Assembly (NCBI GenBank): GCA_964016885.1
Contig: OZ024764.1
Location: 7,440,001 to 7,504,000, forward strand
DNA: 64,000 bases
Source: Eledone cirrhosa
Taxonomy: Eukaryota
Direction of reading: 5' to 3'
Below, one piece after another: positions 516 to 19,836 of the stretch (position 1 is the first letter of the stretch; each line of letters begins with the position of its first letter). Made by a program: the position numbers and the translations under genes. The notes beneath the pieces are model-generated. The model was given only the letters and a program-made list of their open reading frames with translations. It had not been told where the DNA came from and made no database searches.

Positions 516-558
516 ATGAGCAGGGGGGGGGGGGGGGTAGAGGGTCTAAAACAAAATA

Positions 559-3500
559 CCTCACTACATCTGGCCTGATTGTGGAGCAGACGTGAATAGT
601 AGGGATGTTGAGGGTAACACCTCACTACATCTGTCCTGACTGAGGAGCAGACCTGAATATTGGGGATGTTGAGGGTAACACCTCACTACATCTGTCCTGA
701 CTGAGGAGCAGACCTGAATATTGGGGATTTTGATGGTAACACCTCACTACATCTGACCTGACAGAGGAGCAGACCCGAATATTAGGGATTTTTAGGGTAA
801 GACCTCACTACATCTGTCCTGACTGAGGAGCAGACCTGAATATTGGGGATGTTGAGGGTAACACCTCACTACATGTCCTGACTGAGGAGCAGACCTGAAT
901 ATTGGGGATGTTGAGGGTAACACCTCACTACATCTGGCCTGAGGAGCAGACCTGAATATTGGGGTTTTTGAGGGTAACACCTCACTACATCTGGCCTGAG
1001 GAGCAGACCTGAATATTGGGGATGTTGAGGGTAACACCTCACTACATCTGTCCTGACTGAGGAGCAGACCTGAATATTGGGGATGTTGAGGGTAACACCT
1101 CACTACATCTGTCCTGACTGAGGAGCAGACCTGAATATTGGGGATGTTGAGGGTAACACCTCACTACATCTGTCCTGACTGAGGAGCAGACCTGAATATT
1201 GGGGATGTTGAGGGTAACACCTCACTACATCTGTCCTGACTGAGGAGCAGACCTGAATATTGGGGATGTTGAGGGTAACACCTCACTACATCTGTCCTGA
1301 CTGAGGAGCAGACCTGAATATTGGGGATGTTGAGGGTAACACCTCACTACATCTGGCCTGACTGTGGAGCAGACCTGAATATTGGGGATTTTGAGGGTAA
1401 CACCTCACTACATCTGACCTGACAGAGGAGCAGACCCGAATGTTAGGGATTTTGAGAGTAAGACCTCACTACATCTGTCCTGACTGAGGAGCAGACCTGA
1501 ATATTGGGGATGTTGAGGGTAACACCTCACTACATCTGGCCTGAGGAGCAGACCTGAATATTGGGGATGTTGAGGGTAACACCTCACTACATCTGTCCTG
1601 ACTGAGGAGCAGACCTGAATATTAGGGATGTTGAGGGTAACACCTTACTACATCTGTCCTGACTGAGGAGCAGACCTGAATATTGGGGATGTTGAGGGTA
1701 ACACCTCACTACATCTGGCCTGACTGAGGAGCAGACCTGAATATTGGGGATTTTGAGGGTAACACCTCACTACATCTGTCCTGACTGAGGAGCAGACCCG
1801 AATATTGGGGATGTTGAGGGGTAACACCTCACTACATCTGGCCTGACTGTGGAGCAGACCTGAATATTGGGGATTTTGAGGGTAACACCTCACTACATCT
1901 GACCTGACAGAGGAGCAGACCCGAATGTTAGGGATTTTGAGGGTAAGACCTCACTACATCTGTCCTGACTGAGGAGCAGACCTGAATATTAGGAATTTTG
2001 AGGGTAAGACCTCACTACATCTGTCCTGACTGAGGAGCAGACCTGAATATTGGGGTTTTGAGGGTAAGACCTCACTACATCTGTCCTGACTGAGGAGCAG
2101 ACCTGAATATTGGGGATGTTGAGGGTAACACCTCACTACATTTGGCCTGAGGAGCAGACCTGAATATTGGGGATGTTGAGGGTAACACCTCACTACATCT
2201 GTCCTGACTGAGGAGCAGACCTGAATATTGGGGATGTTGAGGGTAACACCTCACTACATCTGACCTGACAGAGGAGCAGACCCGAATGTTAGGGATTTTG
2301 AGGGTAAGACCTCACTACATCTGTCCTGACTGAGGAGCAGACCCGAATATTGGGGATTTTGAGGGTAACACCTCACTACATCTGTCCTGACTGAGGAGCA
2401 GACCTGAATATTGGGGATTTTGAGGGTAACACCTCACTACATCTGACCTGACAGAGGAGCAGACCCGAATGTGAGGGATTTTGAGGGTAACACCTCACTA
2501 CATCTGTCCTGACTGAGGAGCAGACCTGAATATTGGGGATTTTGAGGGTAACACCTCACTACATCTGTCCTGACTGAGGAGCAGACCTGAATATTGGGGT
2601 TTTGAGGGTAAGACCTCACTACATCTGTCCTGACTGAGGAGCAGACCTGAATATTGGGGATGTTGAGGGTAACACCTCACTACATTTGGCCTGAGGAGCA
2701 GACCTGAATATTGGGGATGTTGAGGGTAACACCTCACTACATCTGTCCTGACTGAGGAGCAGACCTGAATATTGGGGATGTTGAGGGTAACACCTCACTA
2801 CATCTGACCTGACAGAGGAGCAGACCCGAATGTGAGGGATTTTGAGGGTAAGACCTCACTACATCTGTCCTGACTGAGGAGCAGACCTGAATATTGGGGA
2901 TGTTGAGGGTAACACCTCACTACATCTGGCCTGAGGAGCAGACCTGAATATTGGGGATGTTGAGGGTAACACCTCACTACATCTGGCCTGACTGAGGAGC
3001 AGACCTGAATATTGGGGATGTTGAGGGTAACACCTCACTACATCTGTCCTGACTGAGGAGCAGACCTGAATATTAGGGATTTTGAGGGTAAGACCTCACT
3101 ACATCTGTCCTGACTGAGGAGCAGACCTGAATATTGGGGTTTTGAGGGTAACACCTCACTACATCTGGCCTGAGGAGCAGACCTGAATATTGGGGTTTTG
3201 AGGGTAACACCTCACTACATCTGTCCTGACTGAGGAGCAGACCCGAATATTGGGGATTTTGAGGGTAACACCTCACTACATCTGTCCTGACTGAGGAGCA
3301 GACCTGAATATTGGGGATTTTGAGGGTAACACCTCACTACATCTGTCCTGACTGAGGAGCAGACCTGAATATTGGGGTTTTGAGGGTAAGACCTCACTAC
3401 ATCTGTCCTGACTGAGGAGCAGACCTGAATATTGGGGATGTTGAGGGTAACACCTCACTACATTTGGCCTGAGGAGCAGACCTGAATATTGGGGATGTTG

Positions 3501-6500
3501 AGGGTAACACCTCACTACATCTGTCCTGACTGAGGAGCAGACCTGAATATTGGGGATGTTGAGGGTAACACCTCACTACATCTGACCTGACAGAGGAGCA
3601 GACCCGAATGTGAGGGATTTTGAGGGTAAGACCTCACTACATCTGTCCTGACTGAGGAGCAGACCTGAATATTGGGGATGTTGAGGGTAACACCTCACTA
3701 CATCTGGCCTGAGGAGCAGACCTGAATATTGGGGATGTTGAGGGTAACACCTCACTACATCTGGCCTGACTGAGGAGCAGACCTGAATATTGGGGATGTT
3801 GAGGGTAACACCTCACTACATCTGTCCTGACTGAGGAGCAGACCTGAATATTAGGGATTTTGAGGGTAAGACCTCACTACATCTGTCCTGACTGAGGAGC
3901 AGACCTGAATATTGGGGTTTTGAGGGTAACACCTCACTACATCTGGCCTGAGGAGCAGACCTGAATATTGGGGTTTTGAGGGTAACACCTCACTACATCT
4001 GTCCTGACTGAGGAGCAGACCCGAATATTGGGGATTTTGAGGGTAACACCTCACTACATCTGTCCTGACTGAGGAGCAGACCTGAATATTGGGGATTTTG
4101 AGGGTAACACCTCACTACATCTGACCTGACAGAGGAGCAGACCCGAATGTGAGGGATTTTGAGGGTAACACCTCACTACATCTGTCCTGACTGAGGAGCA
4201 GACCTGAATATTGGGGATTTTGAGGGTAACACCTCACTACATCTGTCCTGACTGAGGAGCAGACCTGAATATTGGGGTTTTGAGGGTAAGACCTCACTAC
4301 ATCTGTCCTGACTGAGGAGCAGACCTGAATATTGGGGATGTTGAGGGTAACACCTCACTACATTTGGCCTGAGGAGCAGACCTGAATATTGGGGATGTTG
4401 AGGGTAACACCTCACTACATCTGTCCTGACTGAGGAGCAGACCTGAATATTGGGGATGTTGAGGGTAACACCTCACTACATCTGACCTGACAGAGGAGCA
4501 GACCCGAATGTTAGGGATTTTGAGGGTAAGACCTCACTACATCTGTCCTGACTGAGGAGCAGACCCGAATATTGGGGATTTTGAGGGTAACACCTCACTA
4601 CATCTGTCCTGACTGAGGAGCAGACCTGAATATTGGGGATTTTGAGGGTAACACCTCACTACATCTGACCTGACAGAGGAGCAGACCCGAATGTGAGGGA
4701 TTTTGAGGGTAAGACCTCACTACATCTGTCCTGACTGAGGAGCAGACCTGAATATTGGGGATGTTGAGGGTAACACCTCACTACATCTGGCCTGAGGAGC
4801 AGACCTGAATATTGGGGATGTTGAGGGTAACACCTCACTACATCTGGCCTGACTGAGGAGCAGACCTGAATATTGGGGATGTTGAGGGTAACACCTCACT
4901 ACATCTGGCCTGAGGAGCAGACCTGAATATTGGGGATGTTGAGGGTAACACCTCACTACATCTGGCCTGACTGAGGAGCAGACCTGAATATTGGGGATGT
5001 TGAGGGTAACACCTCACTACATCTGTCCTGACTGAGGAGCAGACCTGAATATTAGGGATTTTGAGGGTAAGACCTCACTACATCTGTCCTGACTGAGGAG
5101 CAGACCTGAATATTGGGGTTTTGAGGGTAACACCTCACTACATCTGGCCTGAGGAGCAGACCTGAATATTGGGGTTTTGAGGGTAACACCTCACTACATC
5201 TGTCCTGACTGAGGAGCAGACCCGAATATTGGGGATTTTGAGGGTAACACCTCACTACATCTGTCCTGACTGAGGAGCAGACCTGAATATTGGGGATTTT
5301 GAGGGTAACACCTCACTACATCTGTCCTGACTGAGGAGCAGACCTGAATATTGGGGTTTTGAGGGTAAGACCTCACTACATCTGTCCTGACTGAGGAGCA
5401 GACCTGAATATTGGGGATGTTGAGGGTAACACCTCACTACATTTGGCCTGAGGAGCAGACCTGAATATTGGGGATGTTGAGGGTAACACCTCACTACATC
5501 TGTCCTGACTGAGGAGCAGACCTGAATATTGGGGATGTTGAGGGTAACACCTCACTACATCTGACCTGACAGAGGAGCAGACCCGAATGTGAGGGATTTT
5601 GAGGGTAAGACCTCACTACATCTGTCCTGACTGAGGAGCAGACCTGAATATTGGGGATGTTGAGGGTAACACCTCACTACATCTGGCCTGAGGAGCAGAC
5701 CTGAATATTGGGGATGTTGAGGGTAACACCTCACTACATCTGGCCTGACTGAGGAGCAGACCTGAATATTGGGGATGTTGAGGGTAACACCTCACTACAT
5801 CTGTCCTGACTGAGGAGCAGACCTGAATATTAGGGATTTTGAGGGTAAGACCTCACTACATCTGTCCTGACTGAGGAGCAGACCTGAATATTGGGGTTTT
5901 GGGGGTAACACCTCACTACATCTGGCCTGAGGAGCAGACCTGAATATTGGGGTTTTGAGGGTAACACCTCACTACATCTGTCCTGACTGAGGAGCAGACC
6001 CGAATATTGGGGATTTTGAGGGTAACACCTCACTACATCTGTCCTGACTGAGGAGCAGACCTGAATATTGGGGATTTTGAGGGTAACACCTCACTACATC
6101 TGACCTGACAGAGGAGCAGACCCGAATGTGAGGGATTTTGAGGGTAACACCTCACTACATCTGTCCTGACTGAGGAGCAGACCTGAATATTGGGGATTTT
6201 GAGGGTAACACCTCACTACATCTGTCCTGACTGAGGAGCAGACCTGAATATTGGGGTTTTGAGGGTAAGACCTCACTACATCTGTCCTGACTGAGGAGCA
6301 GACCTGAATATTGGGGATGTTGAGGGTAACACCTCACTACATTTGGCCTGAGGAGCAGACCTGAATATTGGGGATGTTGAGGGTAACACCTCACTACATC
6401 TGTCCTGACTGAGGAGCAGACCTGAATATTGGGGATGTTGAGGGTAACACCTCACTACATCTGACCTGACAGAGGAGCAGACCCGAATGTTAGGGATTTT

Positions 6501-9300
6501 GAGGGTAAGACCTCACTACATCTGTCCTGACTGAGGAGCAGACCCGAATATTGGGGATTTTGAGGGTAACACCTCACTACATCTGTCCTGACTGAGGAGC
6601 AGACCTGAATATTGGGGATTTTGAGGGTAACACCTCACTACATCTGACCTGACAGAGGAGCAGACCCGAATGTGAGGGATTTTGAGGGTAAGACCTCACT
6701 ACATCTGTCCTGACTGAGGAGCAGACCTGAATATTGGGGATGTTGAGGGTAACACCTCACTACATCTGGCCTGAGGAGCAGACCTGAATATTGGGGATGT
6801 TGAGGGTAACACCTCACTACATCTGGCCTGACTGAGGAGCAGACCTGAATATTGGGGATGTTGAGGGTAACACCTCACTACATCTGTCCTGACTGAGGAG
6901 CAGACCTGAATATTGGGGATGTTGAGGGTAACACCTCACTACATCTGGCCTGACTGAGGAGCAGACCTGAATATTGGGGATTTTGAGGGTAACACCTCAC
7001 TACATCTGTCCTGACTGAGGAGCAGACCCGAATATTGGGCATGTTGAGGGGTAACACCTCACTACATCTGGCCTGACTGTGGAGCAGACCTGAATATTGG
7101 GGATTTTGAGGGTAACACCTCACTACATCTGACCTGACAGAGGAGCAGACCCGAATGTTAGGGATTTTGAGGGTAAGACCTCACTACATCTGTCCTGACT
7201 GAGGAGCAGACCTGAATATTGGGGATGTTGAGGGTAACACCTCACTACATCTGGCCTGAGGAGCAGACCTGAATATTGGGGATTTTGAGGGTAACACCTC
7301 ACTACATCTGACCTGACAGAGGAGCAGACCTGAATATTAGGGATTTTGAGGGTAAGACCTCACTACATCTGTCCTGACTGAGGAGCAGACCTGAATATTA
7401 GGGATTTTGAGGGTAAGACCTCACTACATCTGTCCTGACTGAGGAGCAGACCTGAATATTGGGGTTTTGAGGGTAACACCTCACTACATCTGTCCTGACT
7501 GAGGAGCAGACCCGAATATTGGGGATTTTGAGGGTAACACCTCACTACATCTGTCCTGACTGAGGAGCAGACCTGAATATTGGGGATTTTGAAGGTAACA
7601 CCTCACTACATCTGACCTGACTGAGGAGCAGACCCGAATATTGGGGATTTTGAGGGTAACACCTCACTACATCTGTCCTGACTGAGGAGCAGACCTGAAT
7701 ATTGGGGTTTTGAGGGTAACACCTCATTACATCTGTCCTGACTGAGGAGCAGACCTGAATATTGGGGATTTTGAGGGTAACACCTCACTACATCTGTCCT
7801 GACTGAGGAGCAGACCCGAATATTGGGGATTTTGAGGGTAACACCTCACTACATCTGTCCTGACTGAGGAGCAGACCTGAATATTGGGGATTTTGAGGGT
7901 AACACCTCACTACATCTGACCTGACTGAGGAGCAGACCCGAATATTGGGGATTTTGAGGGTAACACCTCACTACATCTGTCCTGACTGAGGAGCAGACCT
8001 GAATATTGGGGTTTTGAGGGTAACACCTCACTACATCTGTCCTGACTGAGGAGCAGACCTGAATATTGGGGATTTTGAGGGTAACACCTCACTACATCTG
8101 ACCTGACTGAGGAGCAGACCCGAATATTGGGGATTTTGAGGGTAACACCTCACTACATCTGTCCTGACTGAGGAGCAGACCCGAATATTGGGGATGTTGA
8201 GGGGTAACACCTCACTACATCTGGCCTGACTGAGGAGCAGACCTGAATATTGGGGATTTTGAGGGTAACACCTCACTACATCTGGCCTGAGGAGCAGACC
8301 TGAATATTGGGGTTTGGAGGGTAACACCTCACTACATCAGTCCTGACTGAGGAGCAGACCTGAATATTGGGGATGTTGAGGGTAACACCTCACTACATCT
8401 GTCCTGACTGAGGAGCAGACCTGAATATTGGGGATGTTGAGGGTAACACCTCACTACATCTGGCCTGAGGAGCAGACCTGAATATTGGGGATGTTGAGGG
8501 TAACACCTCACTACATCTGTCCTGACTGAGGAGCAGACCTGAATATTGGGGATGTTGAGGGTAACACCTCACTACATCTGTCCTGACTGAGGAGCAGACC
8601 TGAATATTGGGGATGTTGAGGGTAACACCTCACTACATCTGTCCTGACTGAGGAGCAGACCTGAATATTGGGGATGTTGAGGGTAACACCTCACTACATG
8701 TCCTGACTGAGGAGCAGACCTGAATATTGGGGATGTTGAGGGTAACACCTCACTACATCTGGCCTGAGGAGCAGACCTGAATATTGGGGTTTTTGAGGGT
8801 AACACCTCACTACATCTGGCCTGAGGAGCAGACCTGAATATTGGGGATGTTGAGGGTAACACCTCACTACATCTGTCCTGACTGAGGAGCAGACCTGAAT
8901 ATTGGGGATGTTGAGGGTAACACCTCACTACATCTGTCCTGACTGAGGAGCAGACCTGAATATTGGGGATGTTGAGGGTAACACCTCACTACATCTGTCC
9001 TGACTGAGGAGCAGACCCGAATATTAGGGATTTTGAGGGTAACACCTCACTACATCTGTCCTGACTGAGGAGCAGACCTGAATATTGGGGATTTTGAGGG
9101 TAACACCTCACTACATCTGACCTGACAGAGGAGCAGACCCGAATATTAGGGATTTTGAGGGTAACACCTCACTACATCTGTCCTGACTGAGGAGCAGACC
9201 TGAATATTGGGGTTTTGAGGGTAACACCTCACTACATCTGGCCTGAGGAGCAGACCTGTATATTGGGGTTTTGAGGGTAACACCTCACTACATCTGGCCT
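559..9300. repeat. ~8.7-kb tandem satellite with ~61-bp monomer (57-62 bp variants) and higher-order structure
   Basis: Monomer cctcactacatctgtcctgactgaggagcagacctgaatattggggatgttgagggtaaca, about 140-145 copies. Identical ORF-track blocks recur at 778-bp and 1979-bp spacing. Confidence 0.98.
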
Positions 9301-9496
9301 GTGGTAGAGTAGAACAGACACCAGTGGTTCTCCCAACCATCTCCATATCTTGTATTATAAAATGTAATACGAAACGATAATACGATTAATGTGGGAACCA
9401 CCGGTGACCATTGATATCGCTTTCATAAGAGGTGCCCTGTCTAGTAATTTAGACCGATGCCAGCGATGTAGTTCAATAGTTTTCATTTCTACTCAA

Positions 9497-9506
9497 TATA
9501 TAAAAG
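9497..9506 (+). promoter_or_regulatory. Putative TATA box of the EVE1 capsid unit
   Basis: tatataaaag lies ~30 bp upstream of the ATG at 9530. Confidence 0.5.
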
Positions 9507-9529
9507 CTAGACCTATACGACTTATCATT

Positions 9530-10420
9530 ATGCCCCCTGCTCGCAAGAGAAAGAAGTCAGAAGAAGACCAGCAGCCTAGTACATTAAAAAAAACAAAAAA
9601 AAAACAACAAACACTTCCAAAGAAATATACTGTACCAGGGTACAACTTTCTAGGCCCCGGAACGAACATAAAAAAAAAAAGAAGTAATGGGTAGCGCGAA
9701 ACCGTCTTGACCAAGCTGCTAAAGAACACGATATAGCCTACGGGAATCCTGACATACGAACCTGGTACGCTGACAAGAAATTCATCGGAGAGGTTGTTAA
9801 AAACAGGACCCACTGGAATATTGGCTGCAGCAGCAATCGCAGCAAAGCGTTACACAGGGCTTGATTCATACTTTAGAGGTAGCAACACCGACACTGTTGA
9901 TTCTGGGGTCCCTGCTAATATGGCTAGCATGGAAACGGATGAAGAGTCTCAGAGAGTGGATGGTGGAGGAGGATGGCAAGGTAGACAAATGGGATCTCAA
10001 AAAGAAATACCGACACCCAGTGGTCCACATCGAAGAGAGGTCACATTCGCTAGGAAGTTCCACAACTGTGTAAAAAGTACAGACATGAACTCATCAACAG
10101 GAAATTTTATTACATTGAAAATGGAAGGCGATAATCAGCCACCTAGCTTGAAAGACTCAATGACCAGAGGTAATTGCAGATCTGAAGACTACATAGTACC
10201 ATATTGGTTAACGTCATGGGTAAAACCAATTGAATGGAAGGCACAGGTTAAAATGGCAACATCCTAGAGAATAAAAGAGTCGGGTTTCAAGATATCTAAT
10301 ATTATATGCTCGGAATGGATAGTTTCGAGAGGAGAAGATCAATTCATAAATAATCCACTACCCTATTTTCAGATATATGTTAATAGAGGTCGATACATCG
10401 GATACAACAACCTTAGGGGC
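9530..10420 (+). pseudogene. Endogenous parvovirus/densovirus-like VP1 capsid gene with PLA2 domain; frameshifted and 3'-truncated
   Basis: Basic N-terminus (MPPARKRKK), Ca-binding loop YTVPGYNFLGPGT, then after a frameshift NRLDQAAKEHDIAY...ADKKF (HDxxY at 9727-9741). It continues through a Gly-rich stretch (GGGG), EVTFARKFH and WLTSWVKPIEW, and past a TAG into GFKISNI..NNPLPYFQIY. Confidence 0.9.
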
Positions 10421-10490
10421 ATAACACGGTCACCCTGTCAAAAACGTGCAACATGGCAGAACATTAGATGTAAAAGATAGGGAGGGCCCA

Positions 10491-10498
10491 TATAAATA
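10491..10498 (+). promoter_or_regulatory. Putative TATA box of the EVE1 NS unit
   Basis: gggccca-TATAAATA lies ~50 bp upstream of the ATG at 10544. Confidence 0.5.
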
Positions 10499-11103
10499 CG
10501 CGAGTGGACACTTCGTCAACAAGTAGCCTCTGAACTACCAAACATGATGATACAAGTAAACGGACAACCAAACATGATGGACCAAGAAACAAAGAAACGC
10601 TTCAACGATCCCACCAACACAACCAACCTTACAACATATACTTGGGTATACCGATGGAAGGAGGAGAAAGAATTTACGTGGAGAGAACCAAACTTGTACA
10701 AACACCCCAACCAAGTGATAAAGTACAAGTCATTCAAAGATGAACACGCATTATTATTCCGCCTGCTCCGTATATTTACCTCGATCATAATATACCACCC
10801 TAAAGGACCATCCAGAATTAAGCATTGTGACGACATAGACCATTTCCATATTATTACTTGGCACTCGACTCATCCCTCGAAACAGCACACATTTCAAAAA
10901 CTGAAGAAAACTATTCTGAAAGATGACCCTATAAATGGATATGAGATGGAGGCAGTTAAGATCCAATCACCGGCTGGCTTTAGCGAATATCTACAGAGAT
11001 ATCAACTTATAGCATGCAACAACATAACAAGAACCTCACAACGAAGAATGCTGTCAACAGTAGCAAAAGAAGATTTAACACCAGCTCACACTGAAGAAAT
11101 AAC

Positions 11104-11286
11104 TGTTTCTACTTTAGGCACAAGGGGCCAGCAAATTACCCAGTGCATTACTGGTACTTTATTTTATCGACCCCCGTAAGGATGAAAGGCAAAGTCAACC
11201 TCGGCGGGATTTGAACTCAGATCGTAAAGGGACGTAACTATGCTGCAAAGCATGGCGTCCGACACTCTACCGATACTGCCAATCCA
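11104..11286 (-). mobile_element. tRNA-derived SINE (family A, Meta-domain-like core) inserted in NS1
   Basis: A box tggcagtatcgg, B box gttcaaatcc and core gcctttcatccttacggggtcgataaaat. An 18-bp TSD tcacactgaagaaataac lies at 11086-11103 and 11287-11304. Confidence 0.92.
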
Positions 11287-11415
11287 TCACACTGAAGAAA
11301 TAACGATGAAAATAAAGACAAATGACACGGTCAGAGGAAATAAGTTCAATTTTGTCAAAGACCTTATAAAGAAATGCAATTCGACAGATCTTGGAGACAT
11401 TATTAATTTTGTATG

Positions 11416-11601
11416 AGGGCGATGGATTGGCAGTATCGGTAGAGGGTCGGATGCCATGCTTTCCAGCATAGTTACGTCCCTTTACGATCCGAGTTCAAAT
11501 CCCGCCGAGGTTAACTTTGCCTTTCATCCTTACGGGGTCAATAAAATAAAGTACCAGTAATGCACTGGGTGATTGCTGGCCTTGTGCCTAAAGTAGAAAC
11601 A
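11416..11601 (+). mobile_element. tRNA-derived SINE (family A) inserted in NS1
   Basis: Same family as 11104-11286. TSD attattaattttgtatg / attattcattttgtatg at 11399-11415 and 11602-11618. Confidence 0.92.
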
Positions 11602-11742
11602 ATTATTCATTTTGTATGTACCGCTGGTAAAGAGAACAATGGTGCCACCTAGGATGCCGTGTACCGAAATACTCCGAATCTTTCTTCTTTGTTACAACCC
11701 GCTGCAACACAGCTACAAATAGAGAATCGTATAACTCCGACT

Positions 11743-12708
11743 TGGGAGCAAGTACAAGAGAAACGACTCATGCTCGGTAGCAAGTACAAGAGAAACGACT
11801 CATGCTCGGGAGCAAGTACAAGAGAAACGACTCATGCTCGGGAGCAAGTACAAGAGAAACGACTCATGCTCGGGAGCAAGTACAAGAGAAACGACTCATG
11901 CTCGGGAGCAAGTACAAGAGAAACGACTCATGCTCGGGAGCAAGTACAAGAGAAACGACTCATGCTCGGGAGCAAGTACAAGAGAAACGACTCATGCTCG
12001 GGAGCAAGTACAAGAGAAACGACTCATGCTCGGGAGCAAGTACAAGAGAAACGACTCATGCTCGGGAGCAAGTACAAGAGAAACGACTCATGCTCGGGAG
12101 CAAGTACAAGAGAAACGACTCATGCTCGGGAGCAAGTACAAGAGAAACGACTCATGCTCGGGAGCAAGTACAAGAGAAACGACTCATGCTCGGGAGCAAG
12201 TACAAGAGAAACGACTCATGCTCGGGAGCAAGTACAAGAGAAACGACTCATGCTCGGGAGCAAGTACAAGAGAAACGACTCATGCTCGGGAGCAAGTACA
12301 AGAGAAACGACTCATGCTCGGGAGCAAGTACAAGAGAAACGACTCATGCTCGGGAGCAAGTACAAGAGAAACGACTCATGCTCGGGAGCAAGTACAAGAG
12401 AAACGACTCATGCTCGGGAGCAAGTACAAGAGAAACGACTCATGCTCGGGAGCAAGTACAAGAGAAACGACTCATGCTCGGGAGCAAGTACAAGAGAAAC
12501 GACTCATGCTCGGGAGCAAGTACAAGAGAAACGACTCATGCTCGGGAGCAAGTACAAGAGAAACGACTCATGCTCGGGAGCAAGTACAAGAGAAACGACT
12601 CATGCTCGGTAGCAAGTACAAGAGAAACGACTCATGCTCGGTAGCAAGTACAAGAGAAACGACTCATGCTCGGTAGCAAGTACAAGAGGAACGACTCATG
12701 CTCGGTAG
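11743..12708 (+). repeat. 32-bp minisatellite (~30 copies) amplified from NS1 coding sequence
   Basis: The unit gggagcaagtacaagagaaacgactcatgctc is nearly invariant. Collapsing it to one copy restores WEQVQEKRLMLGSDCN. Confidence 0.97.
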
Positions 12709-13752
12709 CGACTGTAACAGATACTGTCCAGTGAACACAAGCCTCGTCATATATGAACAATGGACATCTTTTCATTGTATCGACCACATAAAATTTGGTC
12801 AAGATTTATTCGATGTATGCCACAAAATCCTGCCAAAGAAAAACACATTACATATCACAGGTCTCCCAAGCAGTGGCAAGAGCTACATTCTTTATAGCAT
12901 AAGAAATGGTTTAATGAATTGTGGCAGAATGAGATGCCAAGCTACAGATAACTTCACTTTCGGTACCTGTGTTGATAAAACTCTCATCTTCACGGACGAA
13001 ATGTGGTTTACAAATACAAATATAGAAGAAGCAAAATGCATCTCGGAGGTAAGTGAAACCTATGTTAATATAAAGCATCAACATGAACAGATCGTGCAGA
13101 GAACACCATGCATCAGTACAGGTAATAGTGACCCATGGGACCGTGTCATGCAAGACGAGGGTGCACTAAAGGCTCGAATGTTCTTATATAATACAAATAA
13201 ACCAATGTCGAAACTCAAAGAATGGGGCCAGAAAGAGTTAAATCCAATGATGTGGCTCACCATATGGCGAGAATACATTAACGACTACACGCATAATAAA
13301 TACATGTCAACAAAATTAGAATCCCTACCAAAAGCAAGCTATTATGAAGAAATGGTTGCCGATTTCTACTCACCAGCGGAACGAATAAATACAAAGAGAC
13401 CAGCGATTGCAAACAAAAATATCAAAGACGAAACAACCAGCAAGAAACTCAAAATTGACGAAACACGCTACCAAAATAAAGATGACGAAATACAGGCATC
13501 AACCTCCGAAATCACGAATAACGAATTAAATTATAACATGGCTAATGATTACTGGGAGACACTACCGTCCGAATGCCACGACAGACCCGTTTGAAGTCAA
13601 CTGCAGAGAAAAGAAACCTGATAGCATCTGTCACCGTGACCTACAATCCAACAGACAATATTGTACTGAACTTGGTACTGCATTTCATCTATGTAACTTT
13701 GATAATAAAACGGATTAAATTTCATTCTTGTCTTGCGTTTGTTATTTCATTA

Positions 13753-15178
13753 GGAATATCCACATTTGTTTCTTTTACAATGATGTTGTGTTTTTCATTC
13801 AGCCATTAATGTCAAGATCCCAACATGGGACTTCATAAATATTTCAGAAATAAATGTCAATATAAATAACTATGGTAAGACAGCTTTAAAACTTACCAAC
13901 AAAAGACAACACTGATATAGAGCTGTTGTTAAGGTCACTTATCACTCAAGTTCCTTATAAAGGTGACACAGCTGTAGAAGTTGAACTGTAAGTTAACAAT
14001 GATCTGGAATATCCACATTTGTTTCTTTTTCATTCAGGCATTAATGTCAAGATCCCACCATGGGTCTTCATAAATATTTCAGAAATAAATGTCAATATAG
14101 ATAACTCTGGTAAGACAGCTTTACAACTTACCAACAAAAGACAACACTAATATAGAGCTGTTAAGGTCACTTATCACTCAAGTTCCTTATAAAGGTGACA
14201 CAGCTGTAGAAGTTGAACTGTAAGTTAACAATGATCTGGAATATCCACATTTGTTTCTTTTACAATGTTTCTTTTTCATTCAGCCATTAATGTCAAGATC
14301 CCACCATGGGTCTTCATAAATATTTCAGAAATAAATGTTAATATAAATAACTATGGTAAGACAGCTTTAGAACTGACCAACAAAAGACAACACTGATATA
14401 GAGCTGTTGTTAAGGTCACTTATCACTCAAGTTCCTTATAAAGGTGACACAGCTGTAGAAGTTGAACTGTAAGTTAACAATGATCTGGAATATCCACATT
14501 TGTTTCTTTTTCATTCAGGCATTAATGTCAAGATCCCACCATGGGTCTTCATAAATATTTCAGAAATAAATGTCAATATAGATAACTCTGGTCAGACAGC
14601 TTTACAACTTACCAACAAAAGACAACACTAATATAGAGCAGTTGTTAAGGTCACTTGTCACTCAAGTTCCTCATAAAGGTGACACAGCTGTAGAAGAAGT
14701 TGAACTGTAAGTTAACAATGATCTGGAATATCGACATTTGTTTCTTTTACAATAATGTTTCTTTTTCATTCAGCCATTAATGTCAAGATCCCACTATGGG
14801 TCTTCATAAATATTTCAGAAATAAATGTTAATATAAATAACTATGGTAAGTCAGCTTTACAACTTACCAACAAAAGACAACACTAATATAGAGCTGTTGT
14901 TAAGGTCACTTATCACTCAAGGTCCTTATAAAGGTGACACAGCTGTAGAAGTTGAACTGTAAGTTAACAATGATCTGGAATATCGACATTTGTTTCTTTT
15001 TCATTCAGCCATTAATGTCAAGATCCCACCATAGGTCTTCATAAATATTTCAGAAATAAATGTTAATATAAATAACTATGGTAAGACAGCTTTACAACTT
15101 ACCAACAAAAGACAACACTAATATAGAGCTGTTAAGGTCACTTATCACTCAAGTTCCTTATAAAGGTGACACAGCTGT
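13753..15178. repeat. Tandem array of ~232-253-bp units (~6 copies, alternating long and short)
   Basis: ggaatatc(c/g)acatttgtttc recurs at 13753, 14006, 14238, 14487, 14725 and 14977. Confidence 0.93.
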
Positions 15179-15179
15179 A

Positions 15180-15650
15180 AAAAATAACGGAGATCCCTAG
15201 CATGGGCGGAGGCTTGTACCAGGACAACGCCCTGCTCATGGTCCGCGGATTCAATAATAGCCAATTAGTTAGACTACACAAACGACTTAGATATATCTTT
15301 AAGACCCAAGGATTAGCGGTAGAAATAGAACCCAACAGTAGGACAGTGAACGTCTTAGACGTCACTTTAGAATTAGACACAGGTGCGACCTCGGCTACGT
15401 TTAACGAGCGCTGGTATAACCACAAAAGCTCCTTTAAACACAGGCCCAAACGATCCCAAACCAGACTGGTGGACTTGATCTGGGACCTCAAAGACAAGAA
15501 CATGGAATACCAGATCAAATGGTCAGTTAAAAGATGCGTGGCCCAACTCCCCAATGACAGAAACCACTGCAGGTTGTGCTTGGCTGAGGCGGCTGAGATC
15601 ATTAAATTGAAATCAGCCATAAACGTTTGCCTATCCGCTAAATACTTAGA
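15180..15650 (+). mobile_element. Internally deleted Penelope-like element (RT fragment joined to GIY-YIG C-terminal fragment)
   Basis: GGLYQDNAL (degenerate GLYRDD), VNVLDVTLEL, then TFNERWYNHKSSF..IWDLKD..IKWS..CRLCLAE. Confidence 0.85.
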
Positions 15651-15994
15651 ATTCCTCCACCTCCCTCCCGACCGGCTTGTCTCCCTTCCCAAAAGGGCAG
15701 TGCACAGCGCAGGCAGGTTCTCAAATTACGAGGAGGTATTCAATACTATGTGGTGGGAAATATTTTGCTGACTAAGATTAATTCTGATTGGATATTAAAA
15801 TATGCTGACGAAATGAAACGTGGCAAAAACAATAGCATATAAATACCATTGCGCGGAAAAATCTGTCACAGAGGCAGAAGGGCCCGCGCTGAAAAGAACA
15901 ACGATACTCCACTGAAACATAAAACCAACAATAATGAATTACGAAGATTTAAAGGCAAGAGATAGCACAATGTTGAACGAACTATCGGTAAGTC

Positions 15995-16490
15995 ATGCCA
16001 TTACATTTACCATTTTATAATTACTGTGGGCCTTACACTAATAACTTTCAAGAGAAACCGATTAACGAATTAGATAACTGCTGCAGACAACACGACTTAC
16101 ATTATGATAAACAAGATATATTAACAGAAGACGCAGATAAAAAATTAATAGACTGTAGTAAGGAAATTAGTGGAGTATCGTCGTTCTTAGGAATATAATT
16201 AAGGCAAAAAATATACTAATGCCTCCTGTCTTTCCTAAAAAAAGAAGAATCGAACAAGAAGAATCGAAAAAAAATCAAGAAGATAGTTGCGACATTTCGG
16301 ATCAAGATTTGATTGACGCAGTTGCACCACAAGACAGCGGAATAAACGAATCTCAAAACATGGGAGATCCTCATGTTGGGCCAGCACCAGGAGGTGCAGC
16401 TCCGATGGCTACAGGAGATCAGCCACCGTCGATAGGAGATAGAAATCCGATAGTAAGCAAAAAATTTTCAAGAACATTCGTACAGAGGAG
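15995..16490 (+). pseudogene. Second endogenous parvovirus-like VP1 fragment with PLA2 domain (EVE2)
   Basis: LPFYNYCGPYT..PINELDNCCRQHDLHY..ADKKLI, then a basic PKKRR motif, a Gly/Ala-rich stretch and SKKFSRTF (compare EVE1 VTFARKF). Confidence 0.8.
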
Positions 16491-17015: not shown

Positions 17016-17381
17016 TGACATAATAATAAACTGTAGACACACCAGGAAGAGCACCTTCTCCGCCCAGACATTCAGCCATGTGCCAAGGACTAACCCCGAC
17101 TTGAACTCAACATAGGGATAATCAGAAATGCCTTACCACACCGTCCCTCATTTCAGTACCACTGTTTTCTCTGTGAACAAATTTTTTTTTATATTTTGAA
17201 GTGAATGTGACCTAATGGGTCACAGATGGCCTCGTGTATATATATACTTTGCTCCTATTTTCACGGAGATATTCTTATTTTTGTATTGTATGTGTATGTA
17301 AATTTATATATATATATATATATATATACATATATATGTATGGCTTTATAACTCCATATACAAATAGTTGAGCTCTTTTTC

Positions 17382-19836
17382 TTGTCCATTATCCATATCA
17401 CAATGGAAAAACAATACTTGGGAACTTCTTTAAAGAATATACCATTACCTTCTAAGGATGATTTCTTACTTCTTATGATACAAAAAACCAACCAATTTAT
17501 CAGAAGAGTCAGATGGAGGGCCTACCACTTCGATAAAAAATCAAAATGTACAGATAGGAAATATCTGTATGATTTCACTACATATAAAAATCCACCACAC
17601 AACTCTCTACTTGAAAACTTTGAGAAAGACCTTTTTAATTTAATCAAACACCTCAAATTTAAGAGGTATAAATCTAACTTTCAAAAGGACCTTCATTCTA
17701 CCCTATTGGACCTAAAAAAATCCATGTCCACTCGGACAAAACTGGAAACTTATATCACATGGATATTGAAAATTACAACGAGTTCATATATAAGGAACTC
17801 AGGAAAAATTATAAAAAAACAAATAATGCGTCACTTACCAACATCAACAACAAAACACACAGCATAGTGAATAGACTTAATATTGAAGATAGAACTGAAC
17901 CTTTGGCATTGAAAAGACCACACTTCAACCTGAAAGATCATAAATCAAACTTTAACTATAATCCTTCTATAAGACTTATATGCCCTTCCAAATCCGATAT
18001 TGGAATAATTAGTAAAAAAATTTTAGATAGAGTCGTCCCACAAATAAGAAAATATGTTAATTTACCACTCTGGGAAAACACATCCCAGGTAATTAACTGG
18101 TTTAATAATATTAGATATAAATCCTCTGCTTCAATTTGATATAGATAATTACTATTCTTCTATATCACCTATACTCCTGAACAAAGCCTTGATATTTGCT
18201 AAAAATAGATCTAACTTAACTTTGGATGACATTAATATTATTACACATGCTAGACTAACACTACTGGAATTTCAGAATGAATACTGGACCAGAAACACAT
18301 ATAGTAATCTATTTGATATTACTATGGGCTCAAGCGATTCTGCCCAAATTACTGATCTTGTGGGCCTCTTTCTTCTTTTTAACATAAATGCTTCCTTTCC
18401 CCACCTTAAAGGTGGTTTATATTGTGACGACTGTCTTCTTCTTTCCAATAACCTTAGCCTCCCAGAGATAGAAAAAAACAAAAAGCTTATTAGAACTTTC
18501 CTTAAAGACTATTATAGTCTAGATATTACATTTGAAAACACAAGTAAAGTAGTTAATTTCCTAGATATAACAGACTTATCTACGGGTATCTACCAACCTT
18601 ACCATAAACCCAACCAAAATTTACACTACATACACTCACAATCTAATCACCCTAAATCTATCCTTAAAAACCTTGCATATAATATATCACTTAGAATTTC
18701 TAACCTTTCGTCTAACCAAGATGTATTTGATAAAAATGCGACCTTTTATAACGAAGCTCTAGCTAGAAGTGGCCACAAAAATAGATTGGAATATATACCT
18801 TCTACCAATAACACTACAAACATACAACCTAATATTACCAACAAACACCAAATGAAACGTACACACCTAAATGCCACTCACACTATACCCCAAAATACCA
18901 ACATAAAACCAAATTTCTCTAACTCCTCTAATATACAGTATAGTAACTCTCAAAAAACTACTCATCCTACAACTCTAATAAATGTTAATAATAAAACTCC
19001 TAATAAACAAGCTAAAACACCTAAATCAATAAATCTAACTAAAAATGTGTGTGGAGAGGTCATTAACAATAATTCTCCTAGTAAACATCAGGATGCATCC
19101 TATAAAAACAATAAACAACATAGAAACCGTAATAGACGAGTTACTTGGTATAATGCTCCATTTAATTTACAAGTTAAGGATAATATACCTAAAAAATTCT
19201 TTAATATCCTAGAGAAAAACTTCCCGCCAAACCACAAATACCATCAAATCTTAAATAGATCAACAGTTAAATTCTCATACTCAACAACCAAAAACATAAA
19301 ACAAAATATAAGTGCCTATAATGCATATAAATGTAAAAAAACCCATAAGTATACCACCAATACATCAAACTAGCCATAATATCTCCTCAAATACAGGATT
19401 AACGAAAAGTTGTAACTGTAGAAACAAGGCAAACTGCCCATTAAAAGGAAATTGCCTTGTTAATAACATAGTATATAAATGTAAAGTTAACACTAAGGAC
19501 TCTATTTGTTCATATATAGGAGCTACTTCTAACAATTTTAAGGTAAGATTTAATACCCACAAACATAGTTTTAAAAATGCCGCACTAGCTAATACAACAT
19601 CTCTAGCAGAAAAAATTAATAGTTATAGAAAGAGGAATATAGAATATGACATGACCTGGAGTGTGCTCAAAAGAGCCACCCCTTATCAAAATAGTAGAAA
19701 TGAATGTAGATTGTGTTCCCCAGAACTTTTCGAAATAAGGAAATCTAAGGATATCCTATTAAATAAGCGACAGGAATTAATAATATCGTGTAATCATAAA
19801 CTGAGAAAAACATTTAAATATTATAAACCTAATTAA
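17382..19836 (+). mobile_element. Near full-length Penelope-like retroelement ORF (RT + C-terminal GIY-YIG), frameshifted
   Basis: LKDHKSNF..P.IRLICPSKSDIG, QFDIDNYYSSI, FDITMGS.D.AQI.DLVG, GLYCDD, SNHP, WYNAPF, CNCR...CPL.G.CL, IVYKC..YIG..FK.RF..HK.SF and CRLC..E. Confidence 0.93.

Follow-up and report, generated by a model that had tools for sequence, protein, structure and literature searches.

Introduction

Parvoviridae package single-stranded DNA in T=1 particles; their genomes are linear, monopartite, 3.6-6.2 kb long and end in hairpins, and the order of early NS and late VP promoters is tied to a layout in which NS stands to the left of VP. Flip and flop loops, terminal hairpins and inverted dimers are the marks of rolling-hairpin replication of such a linear genome. 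In the available passages, the NS-left, VP-right layout is stated for all parvoviruses (PMC11357303) and is given likewise for 170 new genomes (PMC9896142). For cephalopods, NS helicase fragments from Octopus bimaculoides, Euprymna scolopes and Sepia officinalis were listed in a 2016 supplement, and mollusc sequences branched outside the known genera in the passages at hand (Francois et al., PMC5013282). Here we describe an element in a 64-kb window of the 3.0-Gb genome of Eledone cirrhosa (contig C25, positions 7440001-7504000; coordinates without a locus code are positions in this window). The stretch from 9320 to 13718 on the plus strand is a dead endogenous parvovirus-like element in which the capsid gene VP precedes the replication gene NS1. 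Very probably, it is the decayed germline insertion of a parvovirus-like lineage with a capsid-first order on one strand. This layout is the reverse of the textbook order, and no description of a capsid-first parvovirus was found in the open PubMed Central (PMC) and bioRxiv literature; unremarked examples may exist in subscription papers, figures or GenBank records. The unusual layout reported in PMC11125579 consists of an extra open reading frame (ORF). Throughout, C-codes denote genome contigs, L-codes fetched genome stretches, X-codes public sequencing runs and P-codes public relatives.

Capsid-First Order in Two Lineages

Searches of the same genome yielded 58 matches to the helicase piece of the window element and 23 to its VP piece. 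A second lineage, termed B, was uncovered with 70 VP and 71 NS matches; it is 26-28% identical to lineage A, to which the window element belongs. Gene order was surveyed in 41 stretches, namely the window and 40 loci picked around the top hits, not around all matches. VP and NS neighbours of the same lineage, on the same strand and within 1.5 kb, were counted as a pair. VP was followed by NS in 29 of 33 such pairs (11 in lineage A, 18 in lineage B) distributed over 15 contigs. In 22 of these 29 the C-terminus of VP meets the N-terminus of NS with a gap of 4-256 nt, and in the closest lineage-A copies the gap measures 17-75 nt with no terminus inside. The remaining four pairs showed NS before VP; their VP begins internally, at residues 103, 135, 307 and 354, and no VP start is reached. 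A sequence-only reading of the window had asked for the gene order of other copies and had named a divergent lineage with novel order as its third option. The copies are not all NS-VP, and the recurrence of the order in both lineages, the termini outside the genes and the splice of lineage B (see below) support that option. Since many copies share the same order, they likely record a real virus lineage.

Between copies, the proportion of amino acid-changing differences (pN) was 0.03-0.46 compared to a proportion of silent differences (pS) of 0.32-0.92 in 51 of 52 comparisons, the last pair being near-identical. As the differences are mostly silent, the copies likely stem from separate viruses and not from neutral duplication of one rearranged insertion. 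Because NG86 silent distances suffer from saturation and upward bias, they were not used for dating. In both lineages silent divergence was higher in NS (pS 0.72-0.92) than in VP (pS 0.32-0.76). Four lineage-B loci (L061, L062, L063 and L065 on C998, C5, C10 and C14) are 99.1-99.9% identical. Their reading frames are open, their ends are ragged and they contain junctions of inverted dimers, which suggests recent germline entry. They should be taken as a single event.

These young copies on four contigs, together with contigs resembling spliced NS RNA, one of them identical to the young B copies, would also suit elements that have the capsid-first order but spread within the genome via their own NS1 and are no longer infectious. 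Such self-copying would be compatible with the gene order proposed here and would imply another life cycle. We regard it as unlikely, because the ends are ragged, vary between copies and often lie at TA repeats or fold-backs, unlike those of precise transposition, because purifying selection acts on the capsid and its PLA2, and because relatives occur on public contigs of about 4 kb.

Genome Termini

Hairpins were found outside the gene pair at four ends of sister copies (folding z -8.0, -11.4, -19.9 and -14.8). In lineage A the left hairpin lies about 125 nt upstream of the VP start (Table 1) and the right one 3' of NS (L042, z -14.8). A motif, AAGAGGTGCC, is common to seven sister copies just inside the left end (L041, L042, L045, L046, L048, L049 and L054), and in L059 a left-end motif reappears in inverted orientation at the right terminus. 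In lineage B the stem of the left hairpin (z -11.4) is made of GGGA repeats, an inverted copy of this stem stands at the right end in two of the seven B right ends examined, and about 3.9 kb separate the two hairpins. Among 20 left loops of lineage B six were in flip and six in flop orientation, two were unclear and six had no stem; both forms also occurred among near-identical copies. Inverted dimers are present as head-to-head and tail-to-tail fold-backs. Hairpins that flank the unit, with none between the genes, and the flip/flop ends of lineage B point to a linear genome with rolling-hairpin replication. The right non-coding regions of lineage A share a motif, (A/G)ATGGCGGC, which we take to be YY1-like (L042 3900-4300, L059 4100-4400, L048 6700-6850); in L042 and L059 a sequence resembling a splice donor comes after it.

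A circular genome with a single origin between the NS end and the VP start, always opened at this origin on integration, would likewise leave one and the same order in all insertions. Two different end hairpins, the inverted terminal motif, the flip/flop loops and the inverted dimers fit a linear rolling-hairpin genome instead, and no head-to-tail junction of units was seen among the copies examined, making a circle very unlikely. Still less probable, and largely refuted, is a permuted or concatemeric integration, another option of the sequence-only reading: an ordinary parvovirus with NS-VP order would have inserted as a permuted head-to-tail concatemer or as a circle, and duplication would then have spread this permuted copy. 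Multimeric and rearranged insertions are indeed common here, and four of the 33 pairs are NS-VP. Nevertheless, the termini lie outside the pair and none between VP and NS, the copies diverge like selected viruses and not like neutral duplicates, and the order is common to two lineages, in one of which exon 1 of NS1 stands to the left of VP.

Two Proposed Routes to NS1

In lineage B the first exon of NS1 comprises 18 codons in all 20 copies compared, with a GT donor just 5' of the VP ATG in 18 of them. The acceptor, a pyrimidine tract followed by CAG, lies 33-39 nt past the VP stop and keeps the NS frame in 16 of 16 copies, one of which is truncated so that only its first residues match. These sites had been predicted from the B sequence beforehand, and a joint fell exactly there: positions 5172 and 6791 of L061 are joined with loss of 1,618 nt, GT to AG on the sense strand, in contigs of X18 and X9, which come from two studies and two coded organisms. 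The B capsid gene thus sits inside a 1,618-nt GT-AG intron of NS1. The joint was absent from X15 and X1 and hence present in two of four runs. The kind of X18 is unrecorded, X9 is guessed to be RNA and X15 behaves as DNA; none of the runs listed by the run search is recorded as RNA. A contig of X1, from the second coded organism and about 88% identical, also runs from VP into NS.

Least probable of all is the co-integration, likewise raised by the sequence-only reading, of segments of a bipartite virus resembling Acheta domesticus segmented densovirus (AdSDV) or of two unrelated viruses: A and B elements often lie side by side, and the lineage-A VP relative P0187 and the NS P0161 (outside clade A) are both on 3,807-nt contigs, so that module exchange is possible, but the tight, conserved and terminus-free VP-NS junction refutes co-integration for A, the splice across VP refutes it for B, and VP and NS of one lineage stand together in 29 pairs.

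For lineage A, inspection by eye identified a TATAWAW box ahead of NS in 7 of 10 junctions, four in the last VP codons and three after the stop. The box of the window element belongs to the former, because the true VP end is the TAG in the other frame (Table 1). Lineage A likely makes its NS1 from such an internal promoter. In the window element neither AATAAA nor ATTAAA was found between the end of VP and the beginning of NS. As VP here lacks a separate poly(A) signal, the VP and NS1 units likely share one 3' end. Two separate transcription units had been proposed for the window; two promoters are likely in lineage A, but no poly(A) signal separates the genes and the 3' end is likely common to both. 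The AATAAA at the end of NS1 is weak evidence by itself, since eight AATAAA occur between 9300 and 13720.

Protein Identity and Relationships

The HFH motif and the SF3 helicase that characterize NS1 of Parvoviridae are found in the window and in sister copies. The window helicase matched Pfam Parvo_NS1 with an E-value of 1e-16, and the NS profile matched Rep of adeno-associated virus (AAV) with 3e-12. Atlas gave 0.97 for the NS1 clusters and 0.94 for VP. A model of a lineage-A sister VP (18 sequences; mean pLDDT 54, pTM 0.47) matched the capsids of bocavirus and AAV with an E-value of 4e-9 and models of parvoviral VP1 with 2e-16, corresponding to a single jelly roll of the parvovirus type; a single-sequence fold of the B capsid reached pLDDT 30 and was not used. 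PLA2 (PF08398), typical of the VP1 unique region of Parvovirinae and Densovirinae, was detected in the window pieces and in relatives. A linear monopartite genome with terminal hairpins is seen in sister copies; in the window the left hairpin is weak and the right end missing. Deviating from the Parvoviridae layout, in which the NS cassette stands left of VP either on one strand or ambisense (PMC11357303), VP comes first in most pairs. The elements do not have the segmented arrangement of AdSDV, as there is one unit between two termini and a splice across VP, nor do they resemble Bidnaviridae, which have a protein-primed PolB instead of HUH: HUH is present, and the interval between the termini is taken up by VP and NS. 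Judged by sequence, the element would work like a parvovirus and would fit no named subfamily.

Public relatives were 46-60% identical in NS and 33-40% in VP, some of them on contigs of 3.8-4.5 kb. Contigs of about 4 kb carry, for example, P0099 and P0178 (each 4,017 nt), P0185 and P0186. A quick helicase tree contained 118 rows after 67 of 185 had been dropped as short or lacking Walker A, and a careful tree was built from 40 hand-picked rows; both hold almost only unnamed sequences. In the careful tree lineage A, together with Logan proteins, and lineage B, together with P0099, were each well supported. One or two origins of the capsid-first order would both be compatible with the helicase tree. 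Among 20 helicase neighbours looked up, the sole named virus was 'Turdus hortulorum parvoviridae sp.' (NS QTE03882.1, P0033), the NS of which falls outside clades A and B.

Decay of the Window Copy and Neighbouring Loci

All features named by the sequence-only reading, two TATA boxes, the PLA2-VP, the HUH/SF3 NS1 and the AATAAA, were present on the plus strand where it had placed them (Table 1); the degenerate left hairpin had escaped it. The N-terminal part of VP1 shows, in this order, a basic stretch resembling a nuclear localization signal, PLA2, a glycine-rich stretch and the start of the jelly roll. PLA2 (Ca loop at about 9620-9676, HD at about 9727) is split over two frames, and its pieces matched PF08398 with E-values of 0.0085 and 0.0098, each below the curated cut-off. 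Frame breaks lie near 9670-9690 and at about 9800, a stop at 10265, and residues from about 296 to 581 of a sister copy are missing at about 10424, a loss of 860 nt as measured by a related contig. The proposed PLA2-VP gene with a TATA box of its own thus exists, but it is incomplete through this internal deletion and its C-terminus continues in another frame. NS1 is interrupted by two inserts, which we take to be short interspersed nuclear elements (SINEs), and by a 32-bp array. The first insert is 88-90% identical to copies at unrelated loci. The array of 30 copies represents a minisatellite born of viral DNA, a piece of NS1 coding sequence. The window copy encodes no whole protein.

Table 1. 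Features of the window element and of the neighbouring lineage-B fragment.
Feature	Position	Strand	Remarks
Left terminal hairpin, degenerate	9320..9406		Folding z -1.5; homologous to L041 hairpin (z -8.0) and L054 left end
Left-end motif AAGAGGTGCC and TATA box TATATAAAA	9427..9505	+	Motif at 9427, TATA at 9497; likely VP promoter (putative function)
VP1, N-terminal part	9530..10424	+	ATG 9530; 58% identical to L041 VP over residues 5-296
VP deletion point, then VP C-terminal tip	10424..10526	+	Ends with TAG 10524-10526, another frame
TATA box TATAAATA within last VP codons	10491..10498	+	Likely internal NS promoter (putative function)
NS1, N-terminal HUH endonuclease domain	10544..11107	+	ATGs 10544/10574; HFH 10841-10849; 60% identical to L042 NS
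SINE-like host insert 1	11104..11289	-	15-nt target duplication at 11089 and 11290
SINE-like insert 2	11416..11604	+	13/14-nt target duplication at 11402 and 11605
32-bp tandem array	11744..12709	+	30.2 copies, 99% identical; expanded from NS1 coding sequence
SF3 helicase domain and C-terminal region	12677..13594	+	Walker A ~12860-12883, Walker B, motif C
Cys/His-rich NS1 tail, other frame	13595..13718	+	AATAAA 13704 in last codons; compared by eye with L042
Lineage-B fragment	15631..16485	+	Partial left hairpin (flop); cut by SINE-like insert

Contigs of X15 and X16 cover 9916-11107 without mismatch, spanning the deletion and the VP-NS junction, including the stretch 10420-10490 that had been singled out for inspection; one X18 contig covers 9305-11107 with one mismatch. 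Because these contigs span the junction, the window element is not an assembly artefact. The X18 contig extends unbroken from beyond the left hairpin across the window element.

Satellites directly flank the element, with a 61-bp unit (145 copies) at 558-9301 and a 235-bp unit at 13753-15180. In the downstream lineage-B fragment exon 1 lies at 15934-15987 (18 codons), the donor GTAAGT at 15988 and the VP ATG at 15995, and PLA2 matched PF08398 with an E-value of 5e-14. The exon-1 peptide of this fragment recurs in a twin about 460 kb off on the same contig (L066:6848-7374, minus strand). Parvoviral clusters of both lineages, mostly on one strand each, were observed on C25 at 7.435-7.457 Mb (L058 and the window), on C2 at 345.36-345.40 Mb, on C841 and on C12 at 8.97-9.09 Mb. 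Their arrangement and the unbroken X18 contig suggest candidate read-through loci resembling PIWI-interacting RNA clusters. Overlapping long ORFs with few breaks at 17352-19836 presumably belong to a Penelope-type element with reverse transcriptase and GIY-YIG.

Discussion

We propose that the source virus was likely linear and hairpin-ended, with the order left hairpin, VP, NS1, right hairpin, and likely replicated by rolling-hairpin synthesis through its HUH/SF3 NS1. Repeated germline entry at random breaks would account for the many copies. Lineage A would use a left promoter for VP and a promoter at the 3' end of VP for NS1, with one right-hand poly(A) site for both, which would mirror the usual monosense layout. 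In lineage B a single left promoter would be sufficient, with unspliced RNA for VP and spliced RNA, its 18-codon exon joined across VP, for NS1.

We are aware of several observations that weigh against parts of this proposal. Concerning the survey, several neighbour pairs are not independent, as L061, L062, L063 and L065 are near-identical. Concerning the termini, the left hairpin of the window is not significant alone, and the right terminus is gone, its place lying under the 235-bp satellite. Internal fold-backs are present in L041 and L063 as well, so that a palindrome need not be a terminus, and integration itself could have produced some of the hairpins as fold-backs. For lineage A, the internal promoter is proposed from TATA boxes, and in four of the seven boxes TATA doubles as P-Y-K codons. 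A lineage-A splice or start was not seen on the one A stretch examined, which is no test of A splicing because this stretch is the decayed window copy. For lineage B, the RNA nature of X18 and X9 is not on record and a single DNA-like run served as control. The VP model is of middling quality. The helicase tree did not group A and B, their joint clade not being rejected (p-AU 0.073). Finally, only integrated copies and no free virus genome were seen, and scans of IMG/VR and JGI metagenomes contained no relative; nor did a phage collection or, for the VP piece, PDB sequences, and these blanks are uninformative on the habitat of the virus.

Going beyond the window, we give an even chance to the broader proposal that coleoid cephalopods host still-active capsid-first parvoviruses of subfamily rank with two solutions for NS1, an internal promoter in A and an intron-nested capsid gene in B, and with young copies making spliced NS1 RNA. 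Two reverse-order lineages, one with its capsid gene in an intron of NS1, add a genome plan to the parvovirus family and raise the question of how a capsid-first virus times its replication protein versus its capsid. The copies range from decayed to very young and form a record of a virus group in animals with barely described DNA viruses. They also advise caution, as capsid-first endogenous viral elements (EVEs) need not be permuted concatemers.

Compared with known systems, the cephalopod sequences of PMC5013282 are short NS fragments, and the available passages are silent on termini, on linkage to a capsid gene, on gene order and on splicing; judged by eye, those from Euprymna and Sepia resemble lineage A and the one from Octopus resembles the B-related P0099. 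AdSDV also has an unusual layout, but with NS and VP on separate segments in the passages at hand (PMC10267136). In Swazi bat-associated megaparvovirus 1, which also has complete EVEs, a PLA2 cassette stands ahead of NS1; according to the accessible part of that report the cassettes are PLA2 protein, hypothetical protein, NS1 and VP (PMC13426907). Neither account places an entire capsid gene ahead of NS1 on the same strand. The monosense Parvoviridae with PLA2 (AAV and bocaviruses among Parvovirinae, Iteradensovirus among the monosense densoviruses) share with the elements described here the HUH and SF3 domains of NS1, the N-terminal PLA2 of VP1, a jelly roll of the parvovirus type, a distance of about 4 kb from one terminal hairpin to the other and flip/flop ends, with capsid identity in structure alignments of only 10-17%. 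They differ in that NS is upstream in the passages describing them (PMC11357303; PMC9896142), whereas here VP is upstream and, in lineage B, lies within the NS1 intron.

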